Source: Candidatus Latescibacterota bacterium
GTDB lineage: Bacteria > Latescibacterota > UBA2968 > UBA8231
Assembly: GCA_965248265.1 (NCBI GenBank)
Contig: CBDFJF010000001.1
Coordinates: forward strand, 704,001 to 768,000
Direction of reading: 5' to 3'
DNA: 64,000 bases
Of this stretch, positions 1,180 through 59,920 are shown piece by piece. The number at the start of each line of letters is the position of its first letter. Within the stretch, counting starts at the first letter, position 1. The notes below the pieces were generated by a model. The model was not told the origin of the DNA. It worked only from the letters and a program-made list of their open reading frames with translations, and searched no databases. A program made the translations under genes and the position numbers.

Positions 1180-1208
1180 TGCCCATCGTTTGCCCACTCC
1201 GAAGGTCG
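1180..1208 (+). repeat. 29-bp 11-7-11 site #1
   Basis: tgc ccatcgtt-TGCCCAC-tccgaagg tcg. Confidence 0.7.
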
Positions 1209-1289
1209 CTTTCAATCCACTTGCCACTGTCCCGTTCACTTCTCAGATTCGCTGTCACACCGGCCCAACACTTTGGTAAGGAGGGCAAA

Positions 1290-1949
1290 ATGAGACGAGT
1301 TGCCTGTCTTGCATTTACCATGTGTGCGTTCTCTTGCCATGGCGAGAAACCCGAGACCGTACTCACAGTTGTTGAACACCACGAGCCGGATCGAGTTGTG
1401 GATACAGAACTGGGAACCTTGACGCTTGCGGATCAATCTTGGGGTTTCCAGAAGCATATCGAGGACGATGGGCAGCCTTTGGAGGTGTTCTACCGAGCCG
1501 AGGTGTCTATCGAACTTGACGAGAAGGCGGAGGGATTTGAGGTGGTCGTTCCCTATGAGATTTCTGTCCAAACCTCCTCGAGGGCACAGCAGAATTCGGA
1601 AACCAAGTCCCAGGGGGCGAGCCTTGAACCCGATGCTCCGCCTCGTGGTCTTGCATTAACGAACGCTACCTCGTTTCGGGATTCTCTCTCGCGAAACCCT
1701 CTGTGGCGCGGAATACCTCGTTTCAGCCCAAGGACGGGGCCGGGAGGCATGTCCGGAGGCATGGGCTTCGGGTCCCGAAGGGTGATCCTTAAGCTCGACG
1801 CGCCATGGGCTGAGGCGAGAACGACGATAGAGTTTGCAGGGTCGGTCAGTGATCCTGCGTTAGCTACGTTGCTTGATTCCCTCTCGATCGATTTTCACGA
1901 GCCCCTCTTGTTCCCTGCAGGAACCACGAACTGGGCTCGCAGCCAATAG
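1290..1949 (+). CDS. Hypothetical lipoprotein
   Basis: AGGAGG RBS; signal peptide ending in AFSC. Confidence 0.7.
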   Translation: MRRVACLAFTMCAFSCHGEKPETVLTVVEHHEPDRVVDTELGTLTLADQSWGFQKHIEDDGQPLEVFYRAEVSIELDEKAEGFEVVVPYEISVQTSSRAQQNSETKSQGASLEPDAPPRGLALTNATSFRDSLSRNPLWRGIPRFSPRTGPGGMSGGMGFGSRRVILKLDAPWAEARTTIEFAGSVSDPALATLLDSLSIDFHEPLLFPAGTTNWARSQ

Positions 1950-1995
1950 CATGCTCCCCCACGCCGCCTTTCACATCCGGCTAGGGGAGACACCC

Positions 1996-2024
1996 CGCCC
2001 GTCGTTCAGGTAATGCGATGACCG
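1996..2024 (+). repeat. 29-bp site #2
   Basis: cgc ccgtcgtt-CAGGTAA-tgcgatga ccg. Confidence 0.8.
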
Positions 2025-2034
2025 GGAATGGGCC

Positions 2035-2553
2035 ATGAACAGGTCGCAGCTGGCTGCACAGATCAGCGCCCGGTCCCGCCTGAACGGCGACTTCCTCCTT
2101 CGTTCCGGCGCTCGAGCCACCGAGTACTTCGACAAATACCTCTTCGAGTCGGAACCAACAATACTGCGGTGCATAGCCCAGCATATGACCAAGCTGGTGC
2201 CACCAGAGACAGACGTCCTCGCTGGCTTGGAGTTGGGAGGTGTGCCGATTGCGACAATGCTGAGCCAGGAAACCGGCCTGCCAGCCTACTTCGTGCGCAA
2301 GAGGGAGAAGCAGTATGGCACATGCCGTCTGGCTGAAGGTGGCGAAATCAAGGATCGTTCCGTGCTCGTGGTGGAGGACGTTGTGACCTCTGGCGGACAG
2401 ATCGTGTTGTCCGTCCATGACATGCGCGGTTTAGGGGCCATCGTTGATACCGCGATCTGCGTCATAGACAGGGAGAGCGGCGGAGTTGACACCCTCGCTG
2501 CTGAGGGAGTAAGTCTCACTTCCCTCTTCTCCATGAGCGAGTTACCTGCCTGA
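2035..2553 (+). CDS. pyrE: Orotate phosphoribosyltransferase (short type)
   Basis: GDFLLRSG..YFDKY, VRK..KQYG, PRPP motif VVEDVVTSGG. Confidence 0.85.
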   Translation: MNRSQLAAQISARSRLNGDFLLRSGARATEYFDKYLFESEPTILRCIAQHMTKLVPPETDVLAGLELGGVPIATMLSQETGLPAYFVRKREKQYGTCRLAEGGEIKDRSVLVVEDVVTSGGQIVLSVHDMRGLGAIVDTAICVIDRESGGVDTLAAEGVSLTSLFSMSELPA

Positions 2554-2587
2554 GACTAACAAATTCACAACTAGCTGAGGAATCCCG

Positions 2588-4145: not shown

Positions 4146-4174
4146 GGTCCCACGGATTCACAAACTGATGGGCG
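4146..4174 (+). repeat. 29-bp site #3
   Basis: ggt cccacgga-TTCACAA-actgatgg gcg. Confidence 0.75.
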
Positions 4175-4181
4175 TCGGTTC

Positions 4182-6287: not shown

Positions 6288-6316
6288 TGTCCGTCAGACA
6301 CAGAGTCCGATGACCG
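6288..6316 (+). repeat. 29-bp site #4
   Basis: tgt ccgtcaga-CACAGAG-tccgatga ccg. Confidence 0.85.
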
Positions 6317-6485
6317 CCCTATCCGCCGGCTCGCCCGTTCCGCCAAACGATACCCGTGGAAAGCCGGGGCTTTGTTTCGTCTCCGAGCCTGATTACTTTG
6401 AAATAGAACCGCGACTTGCTACCGATATTATATATGTAGCCCCTTTCCGAACACGCATTCTCCCGCCGTATGAGGAACGACTCTC

Positions 6486-7529
6486 ATGGCTCAGTATGAA
6501 GACCGCAACGAAGACGGCCAGGACGAGGACGAAGAGGCCGGAATCCCAGCCATGCAGAAGATCGCCATTCTCTTCGTCGCTCTCGGGCAGGAGACCGCCG
6601 GTGAGGTGATGAAGTTCCTCACGGACTACGAGATCGAGGAGATCACTCAGTCCGTCGCCAATCTGAAGAACGTCAGCGTAGAGCAGCAGGACAGGGTGAT
6701 GGAGGAGTTCGAGCAGCACCTCCTCGCCGGAGAATGGGTGAGCACGGGGGGAATGGACTTCGCGCGCGGTGCGCTGGAACGTGCGGTGGGACCGCGCAAG
6801 GCACAGGAGATTCTGGATCGGGTCGCCAGCACCACCACCTCGGGTTTCTACATGCTCAAGAACGTCGCTCCTGAGCAGATAGCCCCCTTCATTTCCCACG
6901 AGCATCCGCAGACTATCGCCCTGATTCTCTCGCAGCTCGATCCGGCGCAGGGCGCCGGCATTCTTAGCAACCTGCCGGAGCGCATGCAGTCAGACGTGGC
7001 CTACCGCATCGCCACCATGGAGAACATCACACCGGCCATCCTCAAGGAGATCGAGGAGGCACTTGAAGCCTCGCTGCGCGACATCCTGGGCGGCAACCAG
7101 GATGTGGGTGGTCCCGGAGTGGTCGCCGACATGCTCAACCTGACCGGTTCGTCGGTGGAGAAGAACGTGCTGGACCAGATGGACGCCCAGGATCCCGAGG
7201 TGGCCGAGGCCGTGCGCAACCTCATGTTCACCTTCGCCGACATCTCCAAACTGACGGACCGTGAGTTGCAGGTACTGCTGCGGGAGGTGGATCAGAAGGA
7301 TCTCGTCGTCGCGCTCAAGGCGGCCGAGGAAGAGCTGAAGGACAAGATCCTCGGCAACATGTCCGAGCGTGTGCGCACGTTCATTACGGAGGAAATGGAA
7401 TTTCTCGGTCCGATGCGCCTCAGCGAGGTAGAGGAAGTTCAACTGCGCATCGTCCAACAGGTGCGGCAGCTCGAGGAGCAGGGCCAGGTGACGATCGTAC
7501 GCGGCGACGCTGACGACTCCTTCGTGTAG
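6486..7529 (+). CDS. fliG: Flagellar motor switch protein FliG (orphan)
   Basis: EHPQTIALILS, GGPG, MFTFAD, NMSER, VEEVQ..IV. Confidence 0.92.
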   Translation: MAQYEDRNEDGQDEDEEAGIPAMQKIAILFVALGQETAGEVMKFLTDYEIEEITQSVANLKNVSVEQQDRVMEEFEQHLLAGEWVSTGGMDFARGALERAVGPRKAQEILDRVASTTTSGFYMLKNVAPEQIAPFISHEHPQTIALILSQLDPAQGAGILSNLPERMQSDVAYRIATMENITPAILKEIEEALEASLRDILGGNQDVGGPGVVADMLNLTGSSVEKNVLDQMDAQDPEVAEAVRNLMFTFADISKLTDRELQVLLREVDQKDLVVALKAAEEELKDKILGNMSERVRTFITEEMEFLGPMRLSEVEEVQLRIVQQVRQLEEQGQVTIVRGDADDSFV

Positions 7530-7714
7530 CAGACCTGGCGCGGCACAGTCGATCAAATCAGACTCGAAAGATCGGATAGGAATAGGCAGCCAGCGCGTAC
7601 GACCTGGATCGGGTGCACCTCACGTTGAGCTTCTCTCCATAACTTCCTGCACGCATATAGCCGAGATCCAGATCTCGTGAGGAGATCCTCAACTTCTGAC
7701 TGGCGATCTTGGCA

Positions 7715-7743
7715 TGCCCATCGGAGACAGAATGCGATGGGCG
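7715..7743 (+). repeat. 29-bp site #5
   Basis: tgc ccatcgga-GACAGAA-tgcgatgg gcg; lies between convergent genes. Confidence 0.85.
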
Positions 7744-7897
7744 GGAGTGTAGGCCAGCTCTCCTGCAAGCCGCCCAGACCATGGCCAAGAGGACCTCTGA
7801 CTGTCGCCGCAGTCCGGAGGCCCTTTCCGGCACCAGCACGGGGACGATGGCTGGTTTTTGGTAGGAGAGCCCACCTCTGCGAGGGTGGGCGCCAATG

Positions 7898-9481
7898 TCA
7901 TTTTTCCATCAATCGGTAACGATCTACCTCACTACCCTGGGCATGCCAGATTTCGTTCGCTGTTCCGGGGGCAAAATCAAATCCTTCCAAATGCATCACT
8001 GGTTCGGCGATGTGCCAAACGCGCCTGGGATGTCGCCGTTGGTCGGTAAGTTTGTCAGGGATATCAAACTCGAAGAGACCATCCATGCTGCCAAACGTGT
8101 GAATCGAGTAGAGCTTTCGCCCAACGATCCGGATTCCCTGAGAGAAGTGCATTGCCTCTGGATATCGGAACACGCCATCGCGTTCGATCTTGTCGCCATC
8201 GATCCGATAACGATGGATGCCCAGATCGCTAAGGTCGCCGACCCAAACGTTGTCGCCATCGAAGCAAACAGGATCGATCCATGTGACGTCTTGCGTGATG
8301 TCCCAGGTGTTGACGACAATCAGATCGCTGGCGCGAATCTTGGCGATGATCGAGCGGTTCAGCTTCGGATCGTGCTTGCCGTTCTCTGGGCCCTGCAAAA
8401 GCCCTGCCCACAGGAAGCCGTCGTGATAGTCGATCGCGCCGATGTGGTTCACACCTTCGATGTGAATCTCCTTTTCTTCGAGCAAGTTCCATTTGTTGTC
8501 GTAGCGGAAAATCGAGCGCGCGGTGCTGGTGAAATAGTGCTTGTCGGTAAGAGCCATCCCTTGCTGAGCGGCGCCGTTGGCAAGTATGTGTTGCTCGAGC
8601 AAGACGGATTGCGGCCTTTCGAGGCCTAGCTGCTTCAATCGTGAGCGATAGGTCGGCTTCAATCGCGGAATGCTTTGTTTATCTGCAACCTTCAACATCG
8701 CGGCGACTCGATCGACCAGAGGGAACTCGACTCCCGCCTCGAACAGCGTGTTCACTTTGCCGGCTTCGTTCGCGCAACAGTAGTTGATGCGGATTCGATG
8801 CTGTTTGAGAACCGTCGAATGAGCCGGGTCGACCGACTTGGCACCGAGTAGTTGAATGAATTCCGCTTTCATGTCGATTGTTTCGTTGACATACTGCAGC
8901 GTGTTCGCCTGCCGTTCCAAATTGCAGATCATGACCCGGGGCTCAACACGCTTGGCGGCGCGAGCGGCAACGGTTCCGCACGCCAGAAACGCTTGATGCA
9001 ATCGATCATTGGCCATAATGCTCTTGGCGACTTCTGCAGCCAACTTCGCCTCGCCCTTGAGATGCACGTTGAGCCACACGTTGTCCGGCATGACCGCGAG
9101 CGCTTCATCGAACGTGGGAATGCGCTCACCCTGGAACTGGTCATCCTTCCACCCACCGGCATCCAGCTTCTTCAGCTCTTCCAAAGTCAATTGCGAGACC
9201 GCCCCTTCCCCGTTTGTCGTGCGGTCGACGGTCGCGTCGTGCATCAGCACCAGCTTGCCGTCTTTGCTCATCGCGACATTAAGCTCGATCATCTGTGCGC
9301 CCAGGCGAATTGCCTCATGGAACGCGGCAAGCGTGTTTTCCGGGTGAGTGTCGCTCGCGCCGCGATGGGCGCAGATACCGCGCGTTGGCATCTCGATCTC
9401 ACCTGATGCGCTTCGCCCCTGCATTATCGCCGCGGTGATTATTGCGAGAAGAATCGCAGGTGTTTGATGTGACTGTTTCAT
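7898..9481 (-). CDS. Secreted glycerophosphodiester phosphodiesterase fused to a beta-propeller
   Basis: AHRGAS..PENT, SKDGKLVLMHD; beta-rich C-terminal half. Confidence 0.8.
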   Translation of the reverse strand: MKQSHQTPAILLAIITAAIMQGRSASGEIEMPTRGICAHRGASDTHPENTLAAFHEAIRLGAQMIELNVAMSKDGKLVLMHDATVDRTTNGEGAVSQLTLEELKKLDAGGWKDDQFQGERIPTFDEALAVMPDNVWLNVHLKGEAKLAAEVAKSIMANDRLHQAFLACGTVAARAAKRVEPRVMICNLERQANTLQYVNETIDMKAEFIQLLGAKSVDPAHSTVLKQHRIRINYCCANEAGKVNTLFEAGVEFPLVDRVAAMLKVADKQSIPRLKPTYRSRLKQLGLERPQSVLLEQHILANGAAQQGMALTDKHYFTSTARSIFRYDNKWNLLEEKEIHIEGVNHIGAIDYHDGFLWAGLLQGPENGKHDPKLNRSIIAKIRASDLIVVNTWDITQDVTWIDPVCFDGDNVWVGDLSDLGIHRYRIDGDKIERDGVFRYPEAMHFSQGIRIVGRKLYSIHTFGSMDGLFEFDIPDKLTDQRRHPRRVWHIAEPVMHLEGFDFAPGTANEIWHAQGSEVDRYRLMEK

Positions 9482-9560
9482 ATCGAATTGACAATCTAAA
9501 TCAGCTGGCCTTAGTTGCCCACCTCCACTGGCGACAACCGCCAAATCTAGGAGGCACCAC

Positions 9561-10595
9561 ATGGCCCAGGTCCCATGGTTTCGCGAGATCGAGCTGTACA
9601 CCTTCGGGTTCGGTGGCTACGACACCTACCGCATACCTGCCCTGGTCACCACCACCTCGGGCTCCCTGCTCGCCTTCTGCGAGGGCCGCCGCGACGGCCC
9701 CGCCGACGACGGCAAAATCGACATCGTCCTCCGGCGCAGCACCGACGCCGGCGCCACCTGGGACGAACAACGCGTCGTCCAGGCCGATGGCGAGGAGACC
9801 ACCGGCAACCCCTGCCCCTTCGTCGACGTCGAGACCGGCGCCGTCTGGCTTTCGTACTGCCGCAACAGCGACCGCGTCTTCCTGACCAGAAGCGACGACG
9901 ACGGCCTCACTTGGTCTTCTCCCGAAGAGATCACGACGCTGGGGGCCAAAGCACCCGAGTGGACATGGTACGCCACCGGTCCCGGCCACGGTATTCAGCT
10001 CTCTACCGGCCGCCTGCTGATACCGTGCGACCACGGCATCGGCAGCCGCCAGGAGGCCCCCTACTCTTACTCGCACGCCCTTTACAGCGACGACCACGGC
10101 CGCAGCTGGCAGTACAGCGAGGAACTCCCCTACGGCAGCAATGAATGCCAGGTGGTCGAAGCACAGGGCGGCAAAGTGTACATGACCTCCCGCAACCCGG
10201 TGGCCGGCGGCCGCACCGAAGCCTGGAGCAGCGACGGAGGCCACAGCTGGTCCGAGCTCGTCGTCCGACACGACCTCCCCGACCCGGTCTGCCAGGCCAG
10301 CATCGTCCGTCTTACCGACGCGGACAGCGGCGATCGAAATCGGATCCTGTTCTGCAATCCGGCCAACGCCTCTCGCGATAACATGACCATCCGACTGAGC
10401 TATGACGAATGCCAGACCTGGCAGGTCTCCAAGCGCCTGTACCTGGGCCCCTCCGAATACTCCGACCTCGCGATCGCCGGGGATATGACCATCTGTTGCT
10501 CGTACGAGCGAAGTAGCGACGAGTATTACGAGAGCATCCGCCTGGCCCAGTTCAACCTCGAGTGGCTTACCGACGGCGCCGATTCATTGGGGTAG
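9561..10595 (+). CDS. Sialidase family protein (GH33/BNR)
   Basis: YRIP motif and five Asp-box-like S-x-D-x-G-x-T/S-W motifs. Confidence 0.9.
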   Translation: MAQVPWFREIELYTFGFGGYDTYRIPALVTTTSGSLLAFCEGRRDGPADDGKIDIVLRRSTDAGATWDEQRVVQADGEETTGNPCPFVDVETGAVWLSYCRNSDRVFLTRSDDDGLTWSSPEEITTLGAKAPEWTWYATGPGHGIQLSTGRLLIPCDHGIGSRQEAPYSYSHALYSDDHGRSWQYSEELPYGSNECQVVEAQGGKVYMTSRNPVAGGRTEAWSSDGGHSWSELVVRHDLPDPVCQASIVRLTDADSGDRNRILFCNPANASRDNMTIRLSYDECQTWQVSKRLYLGPSEYSDLAIAGDMTICCSYERSSDEYYESIRLAQFNLEWLTDGADSLG

Positions 10596-10744
10596 CTGTT
10601 TGGCCGCCTGGACGACGCTCTCGACAAGAACGTATTCGTTGGGCCCGTAGCAATGGTAGAGCATGCCGGGCCCGAACGGGGGGATGCAGGGAATGCCGGC
10701 CAACAGCTGAAAGGACGTCGCGTCGGTGGCCACCGGAAACGTCG

Positions 10745-11035
10745 ACAGCTCCGGCACCTGGCAGTGCAGCCTACAGTGCGTCAAAGGCAGCGCTAAGCAC
10801 CTTGAGTCTAACGATGGCCCGCGAGCGGACAACCACAAGCATCCTCGTAAACGCCATGAGCCCTGGTTTTCTCCAAACGGATATGAACCCACATGGCACC
10901 CAACCGCCGAGCGCTGCAGTGCCGACGGCCATCGAGCTCGCCACACAGCCTGATCACGGTCCGAGCGGACGATTCTACCGCTTTCAAGAAGAGGTCACCG
11001 TGATCCCTGCGTCGTCGAGGTCGTGGACGAAGTAG
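10745..11035 (+). pseudogene. SDR oxidoreductase C-terminal fragment
   Basis: YSASK, VNAMSPG..QTDM; Rossmann N-terminus absent. Confidence 0.65.
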
Positions 11036-11055
11036 CGTCAGCAGCGCGTCGTGGT

Positions 11056-11084
11056 TGTCCGTCGGCGACAGAAACTGATGGTCA
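11056..11084 (+). repeat. 29-bp site #6
   Basis: tgt ccgtcggc-GACAGAA-actgatgg tca. Confidence 0.85.
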
Positions 11085-11301
11085 TCTCTCTTGTGCCTGT
11101 TTTAGAACGCCTCGATCTTGGTGGGAAGCGGCCCGATTGGAGGATCGACATGAATCGTTTACGCGCCATAGGGCTGCGAAATCAATCTGTTCACGCAGGT
11201 GATATTACAATGCTGGAACTGCTCGAACGAGCACGGCGTGTAACCCGTTCGTGAGCATAGTCCTCGCCCAACTCCCTCCTGCGCCACGGCGGGGGCGTTG
11301 C

Positions 11302-11330
11302 CGTCCGTCAGGTCCTATGTCTGATGGGCG
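11302..11330 (+). repeat. 29-bp site #7
   Basis: cgt ccgtcagg-TCCTATG-tctgatgg gcg. Confidence 0.8.
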
Positions 11331-11482
11331 GTCGAAATGATGGTTTCGTCTACGGTCGGAACTTTGTGTCCGAACCAACGTCAATTCAGCGAGCCACATG
11401 ATCCTACACTCTGATTGGCTGACACCTTCCTTTTGGCCCAAGAGTTCCCCACACATATGCCTACCAAGCCTGGCGCTGATAG

Positions 11483-12865
11483 TTGACCCCGCATACACAT
11501 TGGGTTGAGCTGATTACGGCAGAATCGGCCGAATCGCGCTTTGTGCGTCATCGTCGGCTTATACGCTTTCCGCAACTTACCATGCCGCTCATCGCTGCCT
11601 ATACACCCGCTCACTGGCGAGTCACCCACACTGACGAGATAGTGCAGCGTGTCCGTTTCGACAGGCCCTTCTCACTGGTCGCCATAACGGCTAACACCGC
11701 AGCCGCTCCACATGCTTATGCCCTGGCAGCCGAATACCATGCCAGAGGCATTCCCGTCGTGATTGGAGGGCCACATGCGACGCTGATGCCGGAAGAGGCA
11801 ACCCAACATGCTGATGCTGTCGTTGTCGGAGAGGGAGAGCTTGTATGGCCCAGCCTGCTCCGTGATTGTGAACTGGGGCAGCTGTCATCGGTATACCGAT
11901 CTGAGGACCTGCCTGATCTGAGGAGTATGCCGGCACCCCGCTGGGATTTGATCAAGGGGCGCGTATACGGAAAAGGAGTCACCATCGCGACGAGGGGATG
12001 TCCGTTCGACTGCGACTACTGCTCAATTCCGGCCATGTATCAACGCCGCATGCGCTACCGACCAGTCAACGAGGTCGTGGATGAAGTTCGCCGCATGCCC
12101 GGCCGGGCACTGGTCTTGTGGGACGACAACATCGGCGCCAACCGCAAATACGCCAAAGAACTCTTCGAGGCACTCGCGCCACTAAACAGATGGTGGACCA
12201 GCCAGGCTACCCACGACGTCGCATTCGACGACGAATTCCTCACTCTAGCAGCCAGGAGCGGATGCAAAGCCCTGTTCCTCGGCCTCGAATCCACCTCCCA
12301 GGAGAGTCTGAACGCTGCCAACAAGCGTCACAACAAAGTTTCCGTCTACGAGGACGTAGTGCATAGATTCCACGAACACCGAATTGCGATTCAGGCAGGA
12401 ACAGTCTTTGGATTCGATCACGACGAGCGATCCATTTTCCGGAACACGGTGGATTTTTTCCGCGACATCGCCATCGACTCAGCGACCATCGGCATCCTGG
12501 TCCCCTACCCCAACACACCTCTGTTCCAGCGCCTCGAATCAGAGGGGCGCATCCTGACGCGGGATTGGTCGAAATACGACGGAAAGAAGCATGTAGTCTT
12601 CAAACCTGCCCGGATGTCTGCGGAAGAGTTGCGCATGGGCACGGAGTGGGCAGCTCGCCAATTCTATTCAGTCGGCTCAATTGCTGAGCGCATGTGGAAA
12701 TCGAGGACAGGCCTCTGGTGGAATATTGCCCGTAACGCTGGATACCACTTGGCTCTTCGCAATTTCGGTAGCGTGGGTTATGACCCGGCCGCAGCGAAGA
12801 GATGGAGCAACCAGACCGACAGATCAGGACGAAACAATCTGCCTGGGACGCCGGTTGACCTTTGA
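11483..12865 (+). CDS. B12-binding domain radical SAM protein
   Basis: GGPHAT, VVGEGE, RGCPFDCDYC; start uncertain. Confidence 0.88.
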   Translation: MTPHTHWVELITAESAESRFVRHRRLIRFPQLTMPLIAAYTPAHWRVTHTDEIVQRVRFDRPFSLVAITANTAAAPHAYALAAEYHARGIPVVIGGPHATLMPEEATQHADAVVVGEGELVWPSLLRDCELGQLSSVYRSEDLPDLRSMPAPRWDLIKGRVYGKGVTIATRGCPFDCDYCSIPAMYQRRMRYRPVNEVVDEVRRMPGRALVLWDDNIGANRKYAKELFEALAPLNRWWTSQATHDVAFDDEFLTLAARSGCKALFLGLESTSQESLNAANKRHNKVSVYEDVVHRFHEHRIAIQAGTVFGFDHDERSIFRNTVDFFRDIAIDSATIGILVPYPNTPLFQRLESEGRILTRDWSKYDGKKHVVFKPARMSAEELRMGTEWAARQFYSVGSIAERMWKSRTGLWWNIARNAGYHLALRNFGSVGYDPAAAKRWSNQTDRSGRNNLPGTPVDL

Positions 12866-12985
12866 GCAGCTCAGGAATATCACGGATACGGAAGATATCC
12901 CTGGTGGGGCTGACGCAGATTCAGGCAGGGTTGCAGAGTGCGTCGTGAAGCCAGCAGCGATTGGCTCATTGTTGCTGCGTCATAG

Positions 12986-13014
12986 CGACCATCACCTCCA
13001 TACTCCGAGGCGCG
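12986..13014 (+). repeat. 29-bp site #8
   Basis: cga ccatcacc-TCCATAC-tccgaggc gcg; lies between convergent genes. Confidence 0.8.
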
Positions 13015-13019
13015 CATCC

Positions 13020-13442
13020 TTAGCTGATCACTCGACTGTACAGCACAGCGCTCTCGTCTGGCCCATAGAAGTCCTTTAGGATCGCATCCACCAGGAACCC
13101 GCTGGCGTCGTAGAAACCGCGTCCTTCCTGATTCCTCTCTTCGCAGAGTAGGTATACTCGCCATAGGCGGTAACCCAGATTCAGACCGGTGATATAGGAC
13201 TTCATGTCCGCAAGGCCGGCTTCCCAGAGCATCGTTCCCAAGCCCTTGCGGCGATCCATCGTATTGTAGATTGCCATCTCCTTGATCTCGGCTGTAGCCG
13301 ACCAACGGCTGGCTAGTCTCCAGACTAACTCACCACGAATACTGTTCTCAGCATCCAGTAGACGGACAGCCCTTTGACCCTCGATATAGTCAGCGTTATC
13401 GGCTGGCTCATGCTCTCTCATATGCACAATATCGATTTTCAT
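13020..13442 (-). CDS. GNAT acetyltransferase (RimI-like)
   Basis: RRKGLGTML, N..GRGFY..SGF. Confidence 0.8.
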   Translation of the reverse strand: MKIDIVHMREHEPADNADYIEGQRAVRLLDAENSIRGELVWRLASRWSATAEIKEMAIYNTMDRRKGLGTMLWEAGLADMKSYITGLNLGYRLWRVYLLCEERNQEGRGFYDASGFLVDAILKDFYGPDESAVLYSRVIS

Positions 13443-13544
13443 TGCTCGCCCTCGTATGGTTTGTCTGATGTAACGGACAGCAATCGCTGCTTGCGGAGTG
13501 GCGTTAAGCGCCTGGTGACTCCCGCCTGCACGCACGTCATCCCC

Positions 13545-14130
13545 TCAGACTATTGACTCAAATCGGTCGAAGAGCTCAGAAACTGTCGTCGTGCGCTGCC
13601 CGACCTCGAGATACTCGAACACTTTTGTTCGCACGAGCATGCCGACGACGTCAGCCTTCTCGGCGTCGCCGAGGAAACCACCATGCTCACGATAGCCGGC
13701 AAGAAATGACTGAAAGAGCGTTACATATCGGCCGTCGTTGGCCCCAAGCCTGCTTCATCCATGTCGATCAGTGAGAACGACGTCCCGTCGGCCAACGTGT
13801 TCGCGCGCAACACAGGTCACCGTGAATAACGCTCCACCGCATCCGGCTTCTCCACTCGAGATCTCGCTCGCGATCGAGCAATCTCATCACTTTCGAAATA
13901 TCCTCCGACGAGAACAGACCAGAATCCCTGACATGCTGACGGAATTCCGCCTCCCGATTGAAGCCGGGTATGATGAAATCTTTGATGTACAGCGACTTGT
14001 TCAGCAGATGGGTATCGACTTCAAGGCCGGCCACGTGCAGTTTAGCCACCAACGTACCGGTGCGGTATGCTGTATCCCTCACATTGCGGTTCCACATGTG
14101 TTTCGCCAGTCTTTATGCATTTCAGTTTAA
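13545..14130 (-). pseudogene. Degraded phosphotransferase
   Basis: AKLH...VIHGDL, then frameshifted LIDMDEAG with an internal stop. Confidence 0.55.
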
Positions 14131-14167
14131 ATCACGACCAACCTGCTTGACGGAGTGCCACAGACCG

Positions 14168-15097
14168 ATGCAACATGGACAGACCACCAAACAGCTCGCG
14201 AAGAAGATCGCGGAAATGGATTATGCGCCATACACCCCGGAGGAGGTGCGCCAGCGGATGGGAATTTCTACGATGTCGCTGATGGCCGACAGCGATCCGA
14301 ACCTGGGGGTCGATGAGCAGGCATTACGTCGTGCGGTCGAGGTAGGAGCGTGCAAGATCGAGATCGGTGCCGACTACGGCCCAAGTCATTTTCCTTACCA
14401 TGACCCGGCAGCCATCAGGGAGCTGAAAAAGCTATATAAAGATTGTGGCGCAGAAATTTATTCTATCCACTCGCCGTACGGTCACGATCCGCTTCAGTGG
14501 GACCTGGAAGATTGCAAACGACTTATCGAAACGATGGCTGCCGTCGGCGCCAAGGTATTGCTGTTGCACTGCCTTGTCTGGGGCAAGAAGCAGTGGGGGC
14601 CGGCGGTAGAGGTGATGAACCACCTTGTGCGATTGTGTCGGCCGCACGACATCTGGCTTTCCATCGAGACGGATCTGGACATGACGCACGACGCCAATTT
14701 CGCCGATTGGTTTGAGTTCCCGCAAGTAGGTATCTGCTGTGATACCGGACACACGGGCGCGTTTTTCGGCGGGTTAAACATTCTGGAGATGCGATACAAT
14801 GCCCTGCGCTGCATGACAACGTCGGTCGGCAAACTGAACCATTTACACCTGTCGGACGTCTCGGTGGAGCCGCGTGCCCGTCCCCATGCGACCCAAGAGC
14901 TGAGGCCACGCCGCGACCACTGGCCTCCGGGTCAGGGCTCAAGCCACTGGCAGGGGTTTATGCTACCCATCAAGGCCATGAATTATCCTGGCGCATTTAT
15001 CTTTGAAATCTGGACAGAAGACCCGCAGCGCTTTGAAAAACTGGCGACATTCCCGGAACGCCTGGCTGTTGGAGAGCTTGGCAAGTATGAAGCGTAA
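14168..15097 (+). CDS. Sugar phosphate isomerase/epimerase (TIM barrel)
   Basis: SIHSPY, LSIE, CDTGH, HLHLSD, DHWPPGQG. Confidence 0.8.
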   Translation: MQHGQTTKQLAKKIAEMDYAPYTPEEVRQRMGISTMSLMADSDPNLGVDEQALRRAVEVGACKIEIGADYGPSHFPYHDPAAIRELKKLYKDCGAEIYSIHSPYGHDPLQWDLEDCKRLIETMAAVGAKVLLLHCLVWGKKQWGPAVEVMNHLVRLCRPHDIWLSIETDLDMTHDANFADWFEFPQVGICCDTGHTGAFFGGLNILEMRYNALRCMTTSVGKLNHLHLSDVSVEPRARPHATQELRPRRDHWPPGQGSSHWQGFMLPIKAMNYPGAFIFEIWTEDPQRFEKLATFPERLAVGELGKYEA

Positions 15098-15265
15098 TTT
15101 GCGGATGGGCATTGTCTTCTTCCTGTCATGGCGCTTCCGATGTTATGAGTGATCCGGTAAGATGGTCTCATCTCATCGGTGCATTATCCAGGTACCGCAC
15201 TGGCCGACTAGAAGCAAGCCCTTGTCAAGCGGGCAAGACTTAATCTGGAAAAATCCGGAGAAAGG

Positions 15266-16798
15266 ATGGGGACCATTCCGACAGCAAGTCTCTACAACTG
15301 GGCGATGAACGAGCAGTCGTTTCGACGGGGTACCCAGACGCTGCGCGGATCACACGACATTATCTCGACCGAGCCGGTGCAGGTTGGACACGACCGTCAG
15401 TTGCTCATGGACTTCCATGTCGTGGAGGACCTAAACAACGCTCGTCGCAGGGTGCACCCACCAGCCAGGCACCCAGAAAATCCCGTCATCACCATGGAAG
15501 CCCTGGAGGGCAAGGCCATGCCCTATGGCGGAACGGTCTTGCAGGACGGCGACACGGGCAGGTTGCGCATGTGGCTGAGCCTTGGGGATCTTCGCCAGAC
15601 CGGGGCCGCTCAGTACGGGTGTTGCTGCGAATCCGATGACGGACTTCTGTGGCATGCAGCCGACCAGGAGCCCAGCAGTCGCAGAGGCGTCAAAGCCGAT
15701 GCTGCCGCACTGGACAGCACCCGCACGACGCCGGGGTCGGTCCTGCTCTTGCCAGAGCGCATGCATGATCGAGGCCGGTATGGAATGTGCTATGCGAACT
15801 ACCTGACGAAAGAGCAGATTCCCCATCCGGAGACGATGCACCACATGCGGTACTTCACCGCCTTCAGCGAGGACGGTATCCACTGGACCGATGCGCCGGA
15901 AAATCCCGTCTGGGTCGGCCGCAACGACGGCACCAACTCCATAGTCTACAACGCAGAACGCGATGTATTCATGATCTACCGTCGGTCCACCATTAATGCA
16001 GGAGAAATCCGGCGGATCGCTTATTCAGAGAGCCGCGACCTGATCTCGTGGACCCAGCCGGTCACTGTGATCACGCGGGACGAGCTGGACCCTCTGTTTC
16101 TATACGCCATGCCTGTTTCGTATTATCACGGTGTCTATCTGGGCTTCCTGTACCGGTTGGACTGGCACCCCGACTACGAGCAGAATCGAATGCTGGACAA
16201 TGGCAAGGACTTCAAGATGGACACCGAACTGGTCTGGAGCCGAGATGGCGTAAATTGGCAGCGCCACTTGCAGCGACCGGCGTTCCTGCCGCTGTCTTCC
16301 CCGAGCATGGGGGCGTACGACTGGGCGTTTGCTACGGGCATGAACAACATCATCGAGAGGGACGATGAAATTTTAATCTACTACGGTGGGCGCGAGTATC
16401 TGCACAAGCCCGGCGCACGGATCGACGAAGACCCGTTGCGCAGTCACATCTGCTTGGCCACGCTGCGGCGCGACCGGTTCGTCTCGGTCGGCACCAGGCC
16501 TGACGGTGGATACATGCTCACCCGGCCGCTGGCCTATCCCGGCGGGAGGCTGCACATCAATGCCGAGACCGCCCCTGATGGGTTTATACGCGTCGCGGTG
16601 CGAGAAGCTCGCGGCGTCCGAGATGGCGAGTGGCCCGAAGACTGGCGATTTGACAAGTCAGTACCATTCTCCGGAGATAGCATTGACCACACTATGGCTT
16701 GGCAAGGCGACAATACACTCGAAGCCTTCCCCGACAAGATGCTGCGTCTGCACTTCTGGATAGAAAACGCAGACTTGTATTCCTTCTGGTTTGAGTGA
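15266..16798 (+). CDS. Five-bladed beta-propeller glycoside hydrolase-like protein
   Basis: SDDGLLW / SEDGIHW / SRDGVNW, LATLRRDRFVS; paralog at 41291. Confidence 0.75.
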   Translation: MGTIPTASLYNWAMNEQSFRRGTQTLRGSHDIISTEPVQVGHDRQLLMDFHVVEDLNNARRRVHPPARHPENPVITMEALEGKAMPYGGTVLQDGDTGRLRMWLSLGDLRQTGAAQYGCCCESDDGLLWHAADQEPSSRRGVKADAAALDSTRTTPGSVLLLPERMHDRGRYGMCYANYLTKEQIPHPETMHHMRYFTAFSEDGIHWTDAPENPVWVGRNDGTNSIVYNAERDVFMIYRRSTINAGEIRRIAYSESRDLISWTQPVTVITRDELDPLFLYAMPVSYYHGVYLGFLYRLDWHPDYEQNRMLDNGKDFKMDTELVWSRDGVNWQRHLQRPAFLPLSSPSMGAYDWAFATGMNNIIERDDEILIYYGGREYLHKPGARIDEDPLRSHICLATLRRDRFVSVGTRPDGGYMLTRPLAYPGGRLHINAETAPDGFIRVAVREARGVRDGEWPEDWRFDKSVPFSGDSIDHTMAWQGDNTLEAFPDKMLRLHFWIENADLYSFWFE

Positions 16799-16810
16799 TA
16801 CAAGCGGCTA

Positions 16811-16980
16811 CATATCACCCGGGTTCCCTGGGCCAAGCTGCTCGCCCGTGTGTTCGAGATCGATTTCGCCGCCTGACTAGCCCACCCTCGCGTGATCTGA
16901 ACGGATCGATGCGTTCGAAGGGGCCATTCCGAGGTCGAAATCGACACGAAAACCGATACCGTCAATAAACTTGCCTATCC
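16811..16980 (+). mobile_element. IS91/ISCR-family remnant: transposase tail plus oriIS-like end
   Basis: Translates RVPWAKLLARVFEID; ends in AAACTTGCCTATCC. Confidence 0.55.
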
Positions 16981-16985
16981 CCAAA

Positions 16986-42910: not shown

Positions 42911-42939
42911 CGACCATCGGACTATCAGTGAGATGCTCG
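42911..42939 (+). repeat. 29-bp site #14
   Basis: cga ccatcgga-CTATCAG-tgagatgc tcg. Confidence 0.85.
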
Positions 42940-46255: not shown

Positions 46256-46654
46256 GCCCAGGGTGGGATGACGGCATTGGAGTCTGAGCCACCTCTGGAG
46301 ATCAATGCATATCAGTACGACATCGTTTGCAACGGCCTTGAGCTCTCCAGTGGTGCCATACGCAACCATCGGCCCGATATCATGTACAAGGCTTTCGAGC
46401 TCGCTGGGTATCCACCCGAAGAAGTAAATCGCAGGTTCGGCGGCATGATTCGTGCATTCCGCTACGGTGCCCCTCCGCACGGCGGTATCGCGCCTGGGAT
46501 TGACCGGATTGTCATGTTACTGGCCGACGAGCCCAACATCAGGGAGGTTATCGCGTTCCCGATGAACCAGAACGCACAGGATCTGCTCATGGGAGCACCC
46601 GGTGAGGTATCCGATGAGCAGTTGCGAGAGCTTCACATTGCGGTCAAAGGATAG
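46256..46654 (+). pseudogene. aspS: Aspartyl-tRNA synthetase, 3' fragment only
   Basis: [40 protein letters not shown]. Confidence 0.88.
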
Positions 46655-47539: not shown

Positions 47540-47568
47540 CGCCCATCACCTTCACAATCCGATGATCG
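47540..47568 (+). repeat. 29-bp site #15
   Basis: cgc ccatcacc-TTCACAA-tccgatga tcg. Confidence 0.85.
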
Positions 47569-48870: not shown

Positions 48871-48899
48871 TGCCCATCACACACAGAGTGCGATGCTCA
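48871..48899 (+). repeat. 29-bp site #16
   Basis: tgc ccatcaca-CACAGAG-tgcgatgc tca; fills most of the 52-bp gap between convergent genes. Confidence 0.85.
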
Positions 48900-52316: not shown

Positions 52317-52345
52317 TGCCCGTCAGTGACAGAGTCCGATGACCG
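52317..52345 (+). repeat. 29-bp site #17
   Basis: tgc ccgtcagt-GACAGAG-tccgatga ccg (26/29 identical to site #4). Confidence 0.85.
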
Positions 52346-54328: not shown

Positions 54329-54357
54329 CGACCCACGTTGACAGAATCCGATGGTCA
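54329..54357 (+). repeat. 29-bp site #18
   Basis: cga cccacgtt-GACAGAA-tccgatgg tca. Confidence 0.85.
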
Positions 54358-55210: not shown

Positions 55211-55582
55211 ATGGAAAGCGATTTCGTTGATGCACGCACGTTCATTGGCAAGACCGTGGAGGTCACAATAGACCGCCCCCTCGGATCGAAGCATCCTAAA
55301 TCCGGGCATTTTTACCCTGTAAATTACGGGTTTTTGCCCAATGTCCCTGCACCCGACGGGGAGGACATGGATGCCTACGTTCTTGGTGTATTCGCACCGT
55401 TAGATACCTTTACGGGGCATTGCATAGCCGTCATCCAGCGAAATGATGACAATGATGACAAAGTTATTGTCGTACCAGAAGGGAAGTCATATTCCGATGA
55501 TCAAATTTTGTCTCTTACGGAGTTTCAAGAGAGATTCTTTCAGCCCACTGTAACGCGCGAAGCTGTTTCTGCCACAGATTGA
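55211..55582 (+). CDS. Short inorganic pyrophosphatase-like protein
   Basis: IDRPLGSKHP..YPVNYG..DGEDMDAY..DDK. Confidence 0.8.
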   Translation: MESDFVDARTFIGKTVEVTIDRPLGSKHPKSGHFYPVNYGFLPNVPAPDGEDMDAYVLGVFAPLDTFTGHCIAVIQRNDDNDDKVIVVPEGKSYSDDQILSLTEFQERFFQPTVTREAVSATD

Positions 55583-55674: not shown

Positions 55675-55703
55675 CGACCCACGGATCTACAGTCTGATAC
55701 TCG
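55675..55703 (+). repeat. 29-bp site #19
   Basis: cga cccacgga-TCTACAG-tctgatac tcg. Confidence 0.8.
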
Positions 55704-57396: not shown

Positions 57397-57448
57397 CAAT
57401 TTTTGAAGGTGCCGCCGATGGCGATACCGACGCCGACCAAATCTCTAG

Positions 57449-58252
57449 CTAACCCCGCGGCAGGTGGCCTTCGAGAAAGGCGATGACGAGCCGTTCGAAC
57501 GCCTCCGGCTGCTCCTCGGGCACGGTGTGGGAGGCGTCCTCCACTTCGACCAGCTCGGCGGCGGCAACCCGTTCGGCGATGAGCTCATGGTCCTTCGTGG
57601 GCGTGGACCAGTCCTCGGTGCCGCTGACCAGCAGCGTCGGACACCGGATGAGGTGCAGCTGGTCCCGGATGTCGTACTCGAAGATACCCCGAGCGTTGGC
57701 AGCGTATCCGAGGGACGGGTTGGCGGCGAACATCCTCCGGTAGAGCTCGACGGCGTCGGGATTCGCGGCGCGGAACGAATCGCTCAACCAGCGCTCCAAC
57801 CCCGGTTCGACGAGAGGCCCCATTCCGACGCTCTCCGCGGTCTCGATCCAGTGAGGGATGATTTCCCGCGTGCGATCTTCCATGTGGGCGGAGGTGCAGC
57901 ACATCACCAGCGCGCCGATGCGCTCGGGCTCGTCGATGGCCAGCTGCATGGCGGGGAAGCCGCCGAAGGCGTGGGCGACTATGGCGGCCTGGCCGATGTC
58001 GAGTGCATCCAGAATCGCATGCAGGTCGTCGGCGTGGTCCTGCACTGTGATCTTGGAGCCCGGCGTGTCGACGGACTCGGACCGTCCCATCCCACGCAGC
58101 TCGTAGACGACGGTGCGGTAGTCTCTGGCGAGCACGGGAGCCAGGTGGCGCCACAGGTCGCGGTTGAGTCCGTTACCGTGAATGCAGACTACGGGGTAGC
58201 CGCTGCCGGACTCGAATACCTGGAAGCGGGCGTCGTTGGCGATGATCTCCAT
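57449..58252 (-). CDS. Alpha/beta hydrolase (PcaD-like) with AHAFG at the nucleophile elbow
   Basis: IHGNG, LRGMGRS, PTLLVSGTED, ASH. Confidence 0.82.
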   Translation of the reverse strand: MEIIANDARFQVFESGSGYPVVCIHGNGLNRDLWRHLAPVLARDYRTVVYELRGMGRSESVDTPGSKITVQDHADDLHAILDALDIGQAAIVAHAFGGFPAMQLAIDEPERIGALVMCCTSAHMEDRTREIIPHWIETAESVGMGPLVEPGLERWLSDSFRAANPDAVELYRRMFAANPSLGYAANARGIFEYDIRDQLHLIRCPTLLVSGTEDWSTPTKDHELIAERVAAAELVEVEDASHTVPEEQPEAFERLVIAFLEGHLPRG

Positions 58253-58396
58253 TGGGTCTGTTCCCCCTTCCGTCCCGGCACGCCTGGTAGATCTTGGAGG
58301 ACGCTCTCGAGAAGAGAGCACCAGGTCAAGGCGCGGGCGTCACGACATCTCCTTTCACCGGTTAACCGGAGAGGTGTCTGATAAGGTAGCCGTCAC

Positions 58397-58425
58397 CGAG
58401 CATCGCATCCATACTGCGATTCCCG
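58397..58425 (+). repeat. 29-bp site #20
   Basis: cga gcatcgca-TCCATAC-tgcgattc ccg. Confidence 0.75.
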
Positions 58426-58444
58426 CGTGCAGGCCAGCGGGGAA

Positions 58445-59767
58445 TCAGTCGGTCCCGCCGATGCAGTACAGGTGGGTCCCGGTGCGGATGAACAGCTGGT
58501 CTCCGGCCACCGCCATCGACGACAGGGTGAGGCTGCCGTCGAGTTCGTTGACGTCCAGCTGCTGCAGCTTCGGTCCGGCGGCGAGGACCGTGGTGACGCC
58601 GTCCTCATTGGTGACGTACAGCTTGCCGTCCGCGAGCACGGGAGAGGCGCTGACTGAGCCTTCGGATGTGCGGTGAGGTCCCCACGTGAGGCGGCCAGTG
58701 GCGGCGTCAAGGCAGGTCACCTTCCCGCGGTCATCGACCATGTAGAAGTAACCCTTGTCCGCGACCGGTGTAGGCACGTCAGGGGCGCCGGCGCCGGTCC
58801 AGCTCCAGGCCAAATCGTCGCTCGATACCGCCCCCGAGGCGCCGAGACGGAAGGCCTGCAACGGTTTCTCCACGGTCGGCACGAACAGCATGTCGCCGGC
58901 CACGACGGGCGAACCGACGATCCGGCAGGCGCCCCACTTCTCCGGATTGAGGCCACCGACGCGCCACACCTCCACACCGGTCGCCGGGTCGTGGGCGGTC
59001 ACGTAATCGGCCCCGGACACCACGATCTCGCGTCGACCGTCACGCTCGATGAGCACGGGCGTGCTGTAGGCGTCCGGCGACTCGGCGACCGCATCCGTAG
59101 GACGCTCTCGACGCCACAGCACCTCCCCCGTGGCCGTGTCCAGGGCGATGACGTAAGAAGGGTTGCCCGCCTGCTCCCCGTGGAGGACTGCGAGGATGAG
59201 CCTGCCGTCCGTGAGCAAGGGCGACGATGCATACCCGAACTGCATCCCGAACCGGCCGTATTGCTCCTGCAAGTCCCGTCGCCAGACCACGTTTCCACCC
59301 ATGTCCAGGGCGGTCACGAGTCCGGCGCCGGTGACCGCCCATACGTGCCTGCCATCGGTGACCGGAGACGGCGAGGTGTTGTCGTGCTTCCTGTGCATCT
59401 GGTTGCCGGTATCGAGTGATCGGCGCCAGAGCTCCGCGCCATCCGCTCTGGCGAGACACAAGAGCAACAGCGCATCCTCACCCGGGTCGTGCCCGGTCTT
59501 CGACGACTGAGTTCCGTCCACGGGCCTGCTCGCGGAGGTGACGAACACCCGATCTCCCCACACCACCGGCGAGCCGCCGCTCCACGACGGCAGCGGTGCC
59601 GACCAGGCGATGTTCTCGGCGGCGCTCCAGCTTGTGGGCAAGCCCGTCGACGCACTGACGCCATTTCCGTGCGGGCCGCGCCACTGCGGCCAGTTCACAT
59701 CGGCTTCGGTGTGCACGCTCCAGATCAGTGCGATAAGTACCGCAGCGTTTGTGCCACGCATAACCAT
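58445..59767 (-). CDS. PQQ-like (BamB-type) beta-propeller protein
   Basis: NWPQWRGP, SSP/STP repeats, HLYCIG. Confidence 0.88.
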   Translation of the reverse strand: MVMRGTNAAVLIALIWSVHTEADVNWPQWRGPHGNGVSASTGLPTSWSAAENIAWSAPLPSWSGGSPVVWGDRVFVTSASRPVDGTQSSKTGHDPGEDALLLLCLARADGAELWRRSLDTGNQMHRKHDNTSPSPVTDGRHVWAVTGAGLVTALDMGGNVVWRRDLQEQYGRFGMQFGYASSPLLTDGRLILAVLHGEQAGNPSYVIALDTATGEVLWRRERPTDAVAESPDAYSTPVLIERDGRREIVVSGADYVTAHDPATGVEVWRVGGLNPEKWGACRIVGSPVVAGDMLFVPTVEKPLQAFRLGASGAVSSDDLAWSWTGAGAPDVPTPVADKGYFYMVDDRGKVTCLDAATGRLTWGPHRTSEGSVSASPVLADGKLYVTNEDGVTTVLAAGPKLQQLDVNELDGSLTLSSMAVAGDQLFIRTGTHLYCIGGTD

Positions 59768-59890
59768 GGACTCCCGTGTTTTCTGGAGAATTCGGTTGAC
59801 GACCACTCAGTGTCGCCAGGGTTGCCATGGGGTCGGGCGCCCGTTCCCGGACCGTGAGTACGGCAGCCAGTCATGAATATCTCGCAAGGA

Positions 59891-59920
59891 CGCCCATCAG
59901 TCTATCAGGACGGACGCCCG
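59891..59920 (+). repeat. Degenerate 29-bp site (1-nt insertion)
   Basis: cgc ccatcagt-CTATCAG(g)-acggacgc ccg; same spacer as site #14. Confidence 0.55.

Follow-up and report, generated by a model that had tools for sequence, protein, structure and literature searches.

What are the short palindromes that recur between genes in a 64,000-nt stretch of DNA from a marine bacterium, Candidatus Latescibacterota bacterium (GenBank assembly GCA_965248265.1, contig CBDFJF010000001.1, positions 704,001 to 768,000)? This stretch, the window, is C1:704001-768000 of the source genome (G000; 7.32 Mb in two contigs, C1 and C2; 59.6% G+C), and coordinates given below without a contig prefix are window positions. 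An earlier note on the window had listed 20 of the palindromes as 29-bp sites and proposed an integron/pdif-like array built by site-specific capture of gene modules. We report features absent from that note, namely recurrent spacer classes, the order of these classes, the clustering of the sites at the genome level, a recombinase gene extending to window position 105, and a truncated recombinase copy at 27019-27345. Together they incline us, with some reserve, to the reading that the palindromes are core recombination sites of co-located Xer-like recombinases, whose heterospecific overlaps allow colinear exchange of modules.

The position matrix of the 20 listed sites shows a 29-bp motif with clear-cut edges, YG.CC.TCR..-N7-..YGATG..CR, and unconserved flanks: an 11-bp arm, a spacer that is 7 bp long in every site, and an inverted 11-bp arm. 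Positions G2, C5, T7, and C8 and their mirror positions are near-invariant, and the right arm is nearer the consensus than is the left arm. For searches we used a symmetric arms-only matrix that ignores the spacer, accepting at least 8 bits in the window scan and at least 16 bits for a strong site genome-wide. It reaches 8 bits at 22 window positions, which are the 20 listed sites, one further site at 63388, and a weak, probably false match at 36196. All 20 sites are thus where the earlier note had placed them, and by this matrix its listing is complete over the range that it covered, although its IUPAC consensus was too strict (2 of the 20 sites match without mismatch, and a single one matches the idealised palindrome at ≤3 mismatches). 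Among the three copies that it had called degenerate, the one at 59891 holds up, with a good left arm, a CTATCAG spacer, and an intact homologue at C2:3909141, whereas those at 5239 and 28403 have negative arm scores. Arm complementarity is 6.82 of 11 positions within sites as compared to 6.78 between sites (2028 of 5000 permutations reach the observed value); arms that fail to covary in this way behave as independent half-sites, with no hairpin under selection. At the Rfam gathering threshold the only family in the window is a group II intron, and none falls at the sites. The lack of hairpin covariation and of an Rfam family at the sites, and the 7-bp spacer throughout, agree with the earlier observation that they match neither attC nor the 11-6-11 dif consensus.

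Genome-wide, 92 sites score at least 16 bits, whereas a first-order Markov control yields 3 per 2 Mb, which excludes chance. Three clusters that make up 6.7% of the genome hold 75 of the 92: C1:650-1050 kb with 62, C2:3.85-3.95 Mb with 9, and C2:3.00-3.10 Mb with 4; the 17 found elsewhere are near the chance level. The strict pattern YGNNCRTCR-N11-YGATGNNCR has 31 matches in the clusters and 2 outside, and whole-genome search with it returned 33 forward and 20 reverse matches in G000. Enrichment of the motif is absent in 75 other genomes of the order and 167 others of the phylum, each with at most 7 strict matches per strand. Although the cluster region is 83% coding, heuristic gene calling places 67 of its 80 sites outside open reading frames (ORFs), which upholds the intergenic location claimed before; three window sites do overlap ORFs (4146, 7715, and 52317), involving only a doubtful 5' extension or a 93-aa ORF. 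All four configurations of flanking genes occur (++, 21; -+, 18; +-, 14; --, 11), so that cargo lies in both orientations, as had been stated, and sites 3-20 bp past stop codons and between convergent genes are as frequent as those near starts. By matrix scan and flanking configuration, then, the motif is neither evenly spread through the genome, nor placed in coding sequences, nor tied to promoters. A promoter or terminator reading was also considered and is ruled out, because all four flanking-gene configurations are found. As a separate observation, a single-copy 29-mer that fits the strict pattern (CGCCCATCAGG GACAGGG CGCGATGATCG and close variants) is kept in related genera, where many genomes have it (G045-G054 and others of genus g14, e.g. 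G045:C105:121573-121601); it may be coding there.

The spacers carry the organisation of the arrays. A spacer-blind scan of the 92 sites yields 18 recurrent spacer 7-mers, each found 2-8 times; within a class the spacer is identical, and the arms vary at positions 3, 4, 6, and 9-11. Every recurrent class is co-oriented within an array, which makes the sites direct repeats. The co-orientation reported in the earlier note is therefore real, resting on the spacers, since recurrent classes read one way per array; the sole inverted array (C2:3.03-3.06 Mb) is inverted along with its recombinase gene. The classes, moreover, follow a cyclic order, TGCCCAC, CAGGTAA, TTCACAA, CACAGAG, GACAGAA, TCTACAG, TCCTATA, TCCATAC, CTATCAG, TGCTCAG/TAATGAG, GTCTCAA, GTCCTGA, GTAGCAG, TTGGAAG, TTGATGG, GTGATAT, then a recombinase gene, and TGCCCAC again; we number them 1 to 17, followed by the recombinase gene and 1. 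A label-free test finds 31 recurring ordered neighbour pairs, as compared to 13.0 ± 4.2 after permutation, and 1 of 10,000 permutations reaches 31. When the order was learned from C1:651-686 kb and C2:3.889-3.931 Mb only and tested on the remaining 58 sites, it produced 14 descents in 57 steps, as compared to 26.4 ± 2.2 (none of 20,000 permutations is as low). Half-sites exposed by intron insertions (classes 18, 4, 14, 14, and 4) and a degenerate class 13 site are in order too. Adjacent classes are slightly more alike than random ones (mean Hamming distance 4.06 as compared to 4.51; 395 of 10,000 permutations are as low).

Through a PF00589 search of the genome, which gave 18 matches, we identified four paralogues, 280-312 aa long and with pairwise identities of ∼80%, at C1:685700-686638 (- strand), C1:703263-704105 (-), C2:3033502-3034371 (+), and C2:3930247-3931098 (-). 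The second of these (280 aa; located by the PF00589 search and ORF extraction) has its first 35 codons in the window, at 1-105 on the - strand. All four, and the truncated window copy (27019-27345, -; 108 aa, 84-95% identical to residues 2-89 of its paralogues), lie in or beside the site clusters, at the ends of cycles; the assignment of the 11-7-11 layout to tyrosine recombinases in the earlier note is borne out by this company. Class 17 is the one found ahead of each recombinase copy's 3' end, with a site of this class 0.17-6 kb past it in every case, and the only class-1 site mapped beside a recombinase is ∼1 kb upstream of the C1:703263-704105 operon. The one paralogue scanned against domain models has the PF00589 integrase catalytic domain and the PF02899 SAM-like N domain. 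Its best NCBIfam matches are XerA, XerC, and XerD, all far under their cut-offs (94 bits, as compared to 335 and 330 for XerC/XerD), and the integron-integrase models fall short on it as well (TIGR02249, 74.3 bits against a cut-off of 265; PRK15417, 31.9 against 435). The nearest solved structure is that of the archaeal XerC-like protein 4a8e (E = 4e-15). Across 25 homologues, among which P0003 is the only one of the four paralogues to form a row of the alignment, R137, H218, R221, and Y253 are invariant and K162 nearly so; we take these five to be the catalytic residues. Simple (Xer-like) core sites have two inverted arms of ∼11 bp around a 6-8 bp overlap and a cognate tyrosine recombinase with the catalytic residues R-K-H-R-H/W-Y; judged by sequence traits (motif anatomy, PF00589/PF02899, and conserved R137/K162/H218/R221/Y253), the palindromes have the appearance of such sites. 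Among the homologues, P0002 (on a 337-kb contig), P0006 (1.55 Mb), and P0007 and P0008 (4.13 Mb) are 86-91% identical, and P0010, P0017, and P0019 are 59-60% identical.

Directly upstream of the recombinase at the window's left edge, with a 19-bp overlap, is a gene for a 143-aa protein with a ParB-type helix-turn-helix (HTH) domain (87-518, -; PF17762 HTH_ParB, E 2.7e-08), probably co-transcribed with it; the operon was examined at this one copy. Paralogues of the ParB-HTH gene occur at C1:688591, ∼1.5 kb upstream of the C1:685700-686638 recombinase, and, as a fragment, at C1:731760 beside the truncated recombinase (27512-27772, -; 86% identity in the paralogue match and membership of the family 11 cluster, with no Pfam match). 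As an observation on the sites of this part of the cycle, the class-17 sites C1:177643, C2:1145240, and C2:3040653 each have an incomplete second site immediately after them, in which the TGATTCCCG-type arm is good, the left arm is shifted, and the spacer may be 6 bp long. Two of these three double sites are outside arrays and could be empty attachment sites.

Within the window, where all sites are on the + strand, the classes run 1, 2, 3, 4, 5, 5, 7, 8, 10, (13), (14), 17 up to the truncated recombinase and then 6, 7, 8, 9, 3, 4, 4', 5, 6, 8, (9), 12, the bracketed sites having been found afterwards and fitting the cyclic order. The run begins behind a gene fragment of family 22 (842-1168, +) that precedes the class-1 site in two arrays (C1:651604-651989 and C1:704824-705208, 82% identical); this homology stops at the right edge of site 1, and the fragment may be part of a conserved platform. 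Class 1 (1180-1208), class 2 (1996-2024), class 3 with a weak left arm (4146-4174), and class 4 (6288-6316) follow, and then a direct pair of class 5 sites (7715-7743 and 11056-11084) around 3.3 kb with glycerophosphodiester phosphodiesterase (GDPD) and BNR genes. Next are a class 7 variant, TCCTATG (11302-11330), class 8 (12986-13014), and class 10, TGCTCAG (18879-18907). Two damaged sites come after these: a class 13 site, GTCCTGA, with a decayed left arm (20741-20769), recognised through its homology to array 1 in the slot that runs from site 13 to site 14, and a class 14 site, GTAGCAG (21089-23156), split by a group II intron, with left-arm CGGGCAT at 21089-21095 and spacer and right arm at 23139-23156. 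Class 17, GTGATAT (26822-26850), closes the cycle ahead of the truncated recombinase. Beyond it lie class 6 (37031-37059), a second class 7 variant, TCCTAAA (39113-39141), class 8 (41199-41227), class 9 (42911-42939), class 3 (47540-47568), class 4 (48871-48899), a site with spacer GACAGAG, one step from class 4 and from class 5 (52317-52345), class 5 (54329-54357), class 6 (55675-55703), class 8 (58397-58425), class 9 with a damaged right arm (59891-59919), and class 12, GTCTCAA (63388-63416), the last of which is outside the range of the earlier note. Same-class direct pairs around inserts, such as 7715/11056, C2:3913736/3917552, and several class-7 pairs, fit integration of circles. We also considered whether separate elements, with a core apiece, had integrated one after another, and rejected this because modules are mostly bounded by two different classes.

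Order is conserved among the arrays, and cargo is not. In 43 of 45 slot pairs with the same two bounding classes, no protein of one slot has a homologue in the other at E ≤ 1e-3 (background rate, 97/3534); the slot between classes 4 and 5, for example, is occupied by fliG in one cycle and by a GntR-ABC operon in the following one. Diverged segmental duplication as the whole story was rejected on this count of 43 of 45 equivalent slots without a homologue. The association of gene family with the class of the neighbouring site is weak, both for the right neighbour (3/245 as compared to 16/4218, p = 0.08) and for the left (7/245 as compared to 26/4215, p = 0.002, partly from intron copies). Glycosidases, transporters, extra FliG copies, and gene fragments are among the cargo. 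The FliG gene at 6486-7529 has 8 further genome copies by tblastn, which is unusual for a flagellar switch protein; they include C1:1502207 (97% identical), C1:265586 (92%), C1:385402 (75%), and C2:750855 (74%). Gene fragments occur at 46268-46654 and 55211-55582: a 128-aa piece whose match to a class II aminoacyl-tRNA synthetase is confined to the C-terminal third, and an incomplete inorganic pyrophosphatase of 123 aa.

Two near-identical blocks shared by arrays of C1 and C2 show where the homology breaks. Block 1 (C1:762434-763929 and C2:3907684-3909178, 98.4% identical) starts 9 bp rightward of the class 8 site at 58397 and ends inside site 9 at 59891, where the left arm and spacer are common and the right arms differ. 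Block 2 (C1:767386-767747 and C2:3913195-3913556, 98.3%) starts in site 12 at 63388, where the spacer and right arm are common and 3 positions distinguish the left arms. From this site 9 to this site 12, the two arrays hold unrelated DNA (3.4-4 kb). At these two sites the blocks break inside the spacers, a pattern that would be expected of two crossovers in overlap regions.

A second organism carries the same spacers. JGI (Joint Genome Institute) metagenome contigs were scanned with the 25-homologue alignment, giving 80 loci, and two of these, the marine contigs L011 and L012, which are nearly the same sequence, carry a recombinase gene whose product is 53% identical. They hold three sites in which the arms are the same and the spacers belong to classes 6, 4, and 1 (ctgtaga, ctctgtg, and gtgggca when the recombinase is on the + strand), in the order and polarity relative to the recombinase that we find in G000, and each site pair brackets one gene. 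The cargo genes have 70-74% DNA identity to G000 genes of the ordinary chromosome, outside the arrays. Identical 7-mers at 53% recombinase identity, with arms and cargo differing, argue for constraint on the spacers themselves, as would be expected if they have to match those of partner sites. Two side observations concern these contigs. The 48 bp flanking the class-6 site (L011:3-59, aligned with G000:C1:893336-893392) match, at 88% identity, the sequence beside the CTGTCAG site at C1:893316, so that a short conserved flank accompanies some sites. Separately, G000 chromosomal genes whose homologues are cargo in L011 adjoin two site-like 11-7-11 sequences at C2:2431927 and C2:2432202, with the unclassified spacers TTGGTCA and TTCCGCC.

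The group II intron offers an independent view of the sites. The window copy (21092-23136, -; Rfam RF02005 and RF00029) has a reverse transcriptase ORF at 21191-22519 (RVT_1) and is one of six in the genome that are 90-100% identical, the others being at C1:647273-649343, C1:655002-657077, C1:695938-697986, C2:3891536-3893611, and C2:783713-785763. Five of the six are inserted at one left-arm position of sites, in one orientation, next to the spacers CCCTGAA, CACAGAG (twice), and GTAGCAG (twice); the sixth, C2:783713-785763, is at no recognisable site. Insertion at one arm position across different spacers means that the intron recognises arms, whatever the spacer. This targeting parallels that of the group IIC-attC introns, which a passage in PMC3001079 describes as targeting integron attC sites.

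How would such arrays work? On the reading that we favor, each site would consist of two 11-bp recombinase-binding arms flanking a 7-bp overlap region in which crossover takes place, and the recombinases encoded in the arrays would bind and cut it; from the sequences we infer that the spacer is this overlap region and that exchange may be ongoing. The ∼18 overlap classes would be heterospecific, a site recombining only with its own class. A single crossover between sites of one class would integrate or excise a circle, and two crossovers at different classes would swap the interval between them. Since order is cyclic and conserved and polarity is single, same-class exchange between arrays, or between an array and incoming related DNA, would stay colinear; and since intervals are swapped at like classes, the cargo of a slot would be free to differ. 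Going further, and at a confidence that we would call tentative, the arrays may be a natural positional addressing system, in which ∼18 ordered overlaps serve as numbered docking points for interval exchange by a dedicated recombinase. They would then be a cassette system of a third kind, after integrons and dif modules, and a counterpart in nature of cassette exchange with heterospecific lox sites. Exchange could then proceed within a genome or across a marine population, with no need of cargo homology and with the order left unscrambled, and new addresses would arise when a duplicated site mutates, locking in a cassette.

Several points weigh against recombination at the sites as we describe it. 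Same-class direct repeats tens of kilobases apart would delete the cargo between them if free to react, so that some control of the reaction must be postulated. Only 2 of the 4 boundaries of the shared blocks are in spacers; of the other two, one is the boundary 9 bp past site 8, which lacks a partner site on C2, and one is inside a gene. The palindromes could be bound by the ParB-HTH protein and not by the recombinase. Among the 80 metagenome loci, sites occur only in L011/L012, with one weak match in L006, and there are none near recombinase homologues in 13 loci of 8 other genomes of the phylum. Homologues that lack sites are 36-60% identical as recombinases, and with these more distant relatives site-less, the link between recombinase and site is drawn from one genome and one contig pair. 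Finally, no recombination event has been observed directly: the sole read data are Logan unitigs, from source runs X10-X13 and from seawater metagenomes with 0.06-0.16 of the words, and they are no evidence either way. Source-run unitigs do break at 18890-18919, at the class 10 site 18879, and unitig depth is 7.3-7.7 over 7469-18919 as compared to 12-16 on either side; the right edge of this low-depth stretch is at site 18879, and its left edge (7025-7469) is in the 3' part of fliG, with no site. One joint, from 6335 to 18540, is supported on one side by no more than 24 letters. None of these three signals can be read as recombination.

Wider searches gave little beyond L011 and L012. A de novo palindrome search of 16 metagenome loci found no other site family; a scan of genome contigs with the recombinase returned distant integrases only; a 14-mer of spacer and arm core had 120 chance matches in viral contigs, with no two-armed site among them; and spacer strings near close homologues on short contigs gave doubtful matches only.

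The main rival to recombination is regulatory, and we think it unlikely: a global regulator or silencer, for instance the ParB-HTH protein, would bind the palindromes as operators, and the host region would consist of several tandemly integrated copies of a large mobile element whose backbone sets the order. KorB operators, scattered over IncP plasmids, offer a likeness. Intergenic palindromes with independent half-sites are what such a binder might use, the ParB-HTH gene does stand in one operon with the recombinase at the copy examined, and recombinase genes at cycle ends are as expected of integrated elements. These account for the palindromes and the recombinase genes, but not for the spacers, the unrelated cargo, or the breakpoints in spacers. 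A dimeric binder should fix the arms and leave the spacer free, whereas here the spacer is fixed within each class and it is arm positions 3, 4, 6, and 9-11 that vary; the same 7-mers recur, moreover, in a contig whose recombinase is only 53% identical. Nor would operators be expected past stops and between convergent genes as often as near starts, or block boundaries inside spacers, and the unrelated genes in equivalent slots mean that there is no conserved backbone to set the order.

It is likewise improbable, in our estimate, that the arrays are relics, left by old segmental or tandem duplications of one array or integrated element, with inactive sites and a merely inherited order. Such a history would produce the cyclic repetition, and it sits well with the several degenerate or intron-split sites, with the truncation of one recombinase copy, and with the slightly greater likeness of neighbouring classes by Hamming distance. 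Yet neutral 7-mers would not have stayed identical while arm positions and intervening genes were replaced, and both classes and order are kept in L011. Four recombinase genes retain open frames, although the conservation of catalytic residues covers P0003 alone of these paralogues, and the 98%-identical blocks with breakpoints in spacers point to recent events.

That the sites are structured repeats, acting as hairpins of REP, terminator, or attC type in single-stranded DNA or RNA or serving as mere homing targets of the group II intron, is very improbable: arms 6.8/11 complementary on average, sites close after stop codons in some cases, and targeting by an intron of a kind that recognises stem-loops would suit it, but arms that do not covary (on which ground a hairpin or REP reading was ruled out), the absence of an Rfam family at the sites, clustering in place of genome-wide spread with no enrichment in 167 other genomes of the phylum, and discrete ordered spacers, foreign to such repeats, all oppose it.

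The arrays resemble several known systems without coinciding with any. In integrons, likewise, a tyrosine recombinase gene heads a row of co-oriented sites, between which lie lone genes or short operons whose functions are unrelated, and the first site here, ∼1 kb upstream of a divergently placed recombinase operon, is a further likeness. Unlike integrons, however, the arrays have no IntI, the integrase subfamily marked by an extra domain (TIGR02249 and PRK15417 being far under their cut-offs); attC sites are 57-141 bp long and folded into imperfect hairpins whose structure is what is recognised, whereas these are 29-bp cores of double-strand type, 11-7-11, without hairpin covariation; integron cassettes are co-oriented from a platform promoter, whereas the cargo here has both orientations; and here the overlap regions fall in discrete ordered classes, with several recombinase copies per genome. 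The chromosomal dif is a single site near the terminus, as compared to 92 strong sites with 75 in three clusters. Closest in logic are recombinase-mediated cassette exchange (RMCE) and SCRaMbLE (synthetic chromosome rearrangement and modification by loxP-mediated evolution), engineered with heterospecific lox or FRT sites that have the same arms and different overlaps, so that like recombines with like and a double crossover swaps an interval; these are laboratory designs with 2-4 variants, whereas ∼18 natural ones are spread here over hundreds of kilobases. Shufflons, in which Rci acts on sfx sites with a 7-bp spacer and one better-conserved arm, arranged as inverted repeats in one gene region and giving inversions, are alike in their tyrosine recombinase, many sites, 7-bp spacer, and uneven arms (here the right is better conserved), but the sites here are direct, intergenic repeats over 365 kb with many spacer classes. 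Repetitive extragenic palindromes (REP) and bacterial interspersed mosaic elements (BIME) are genome-wide extragenic hairpins with compensatory stems that go with a RAYT transposase, unlike these clustered sites without covariation; no search for RAYT was made.

The pdif sites have 6-bp spacers, alternate between C/D and D/C orientation, and use the host XerC and XerD. The dif modules of Acinetobacter plasmids and the arrays of Xer-dependent IMEX (integrative mobile elements exploiting Xer) are alike in having Xer-type sites with 11-bp arms that flank accessory modules, but the sites here have a 7-bp spacer, are direct repeats in ∼18 ordered classes, and are served by dedicated paralogous recombinases in the arrays. 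The passages of PMC6449649, PMC7399989, and PMC13141974 that we draw on present such 11-bp-arm sites as flanking accessory modules thought to be moved by Xer recombination. Similarly, a passage of PMC4057263 on the integrative and conjugative element (ICE) PAISt of Streptomyces turgidiscabies describes copies of a palindromic att core inside the island that allow modular excision. PAISt thus shares multiple palindromic cores with the arrays; unlike them, it has three copies of a single 8-bp core, with no classes and no order.

Against this background, the proposal of an integron/pdif-like array built by capture fares unevenly: the tyrosine-recombinase layout stands and is joined by breakpoints in spacers, while an integron or pdif mechanism does not stand (no IntI, a 7-bp spacer, direct repeats, dedicated recombinases), and capture itself is something that we could only infer. 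We rate the array-level organisation as new among tyrosine-recombinase cassette systems. No description of ordered heterospecific site arrays was found in the full-text literature searched, a body of text that largely leaves out subscription journals. Were the recombination reading true, bacteria would have arrived by evolution at recombinase-mediated cassette exchange over many orthogonal sites, which synthetic biologists devised independently, and a 365-kb region holding unrelated cargo in a conserved scaffold would be explained. Integrons and dif modules would then be joined by another class of platform for gene exchange, and genome engineering would gain a ready set of ∼18 sites that are orthogonal to one another, served by a compact recombinase of ∼283 aa.

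A few further features of the region deserve record. GC skew is near zero (-1.4 to +0.5%) over G000:C1:500-1100 kb, as compared to mostly -2 to -5% in the rest of C1, which fits a mosaic or recently assembled region; arrays read + where the skew is negative and - where it is positive, a correspondence that comprises three loci only. Insertion-sequence-like repeats of ∼1.16 kb and ∼1.31 kb, with at least 10 copies at 98-100% identity in the whole genome, are partly inside arrays (e.g. C2:3917612-3918926 and C2:3899639-3900954). A tandem repeat of ∼330 bp, 96.7% identical, lies inside a gene with leucine-rich repeat (LRR), PKD, and Por-secretion-tail segments at 24632-25350 (C1:728632-729350).

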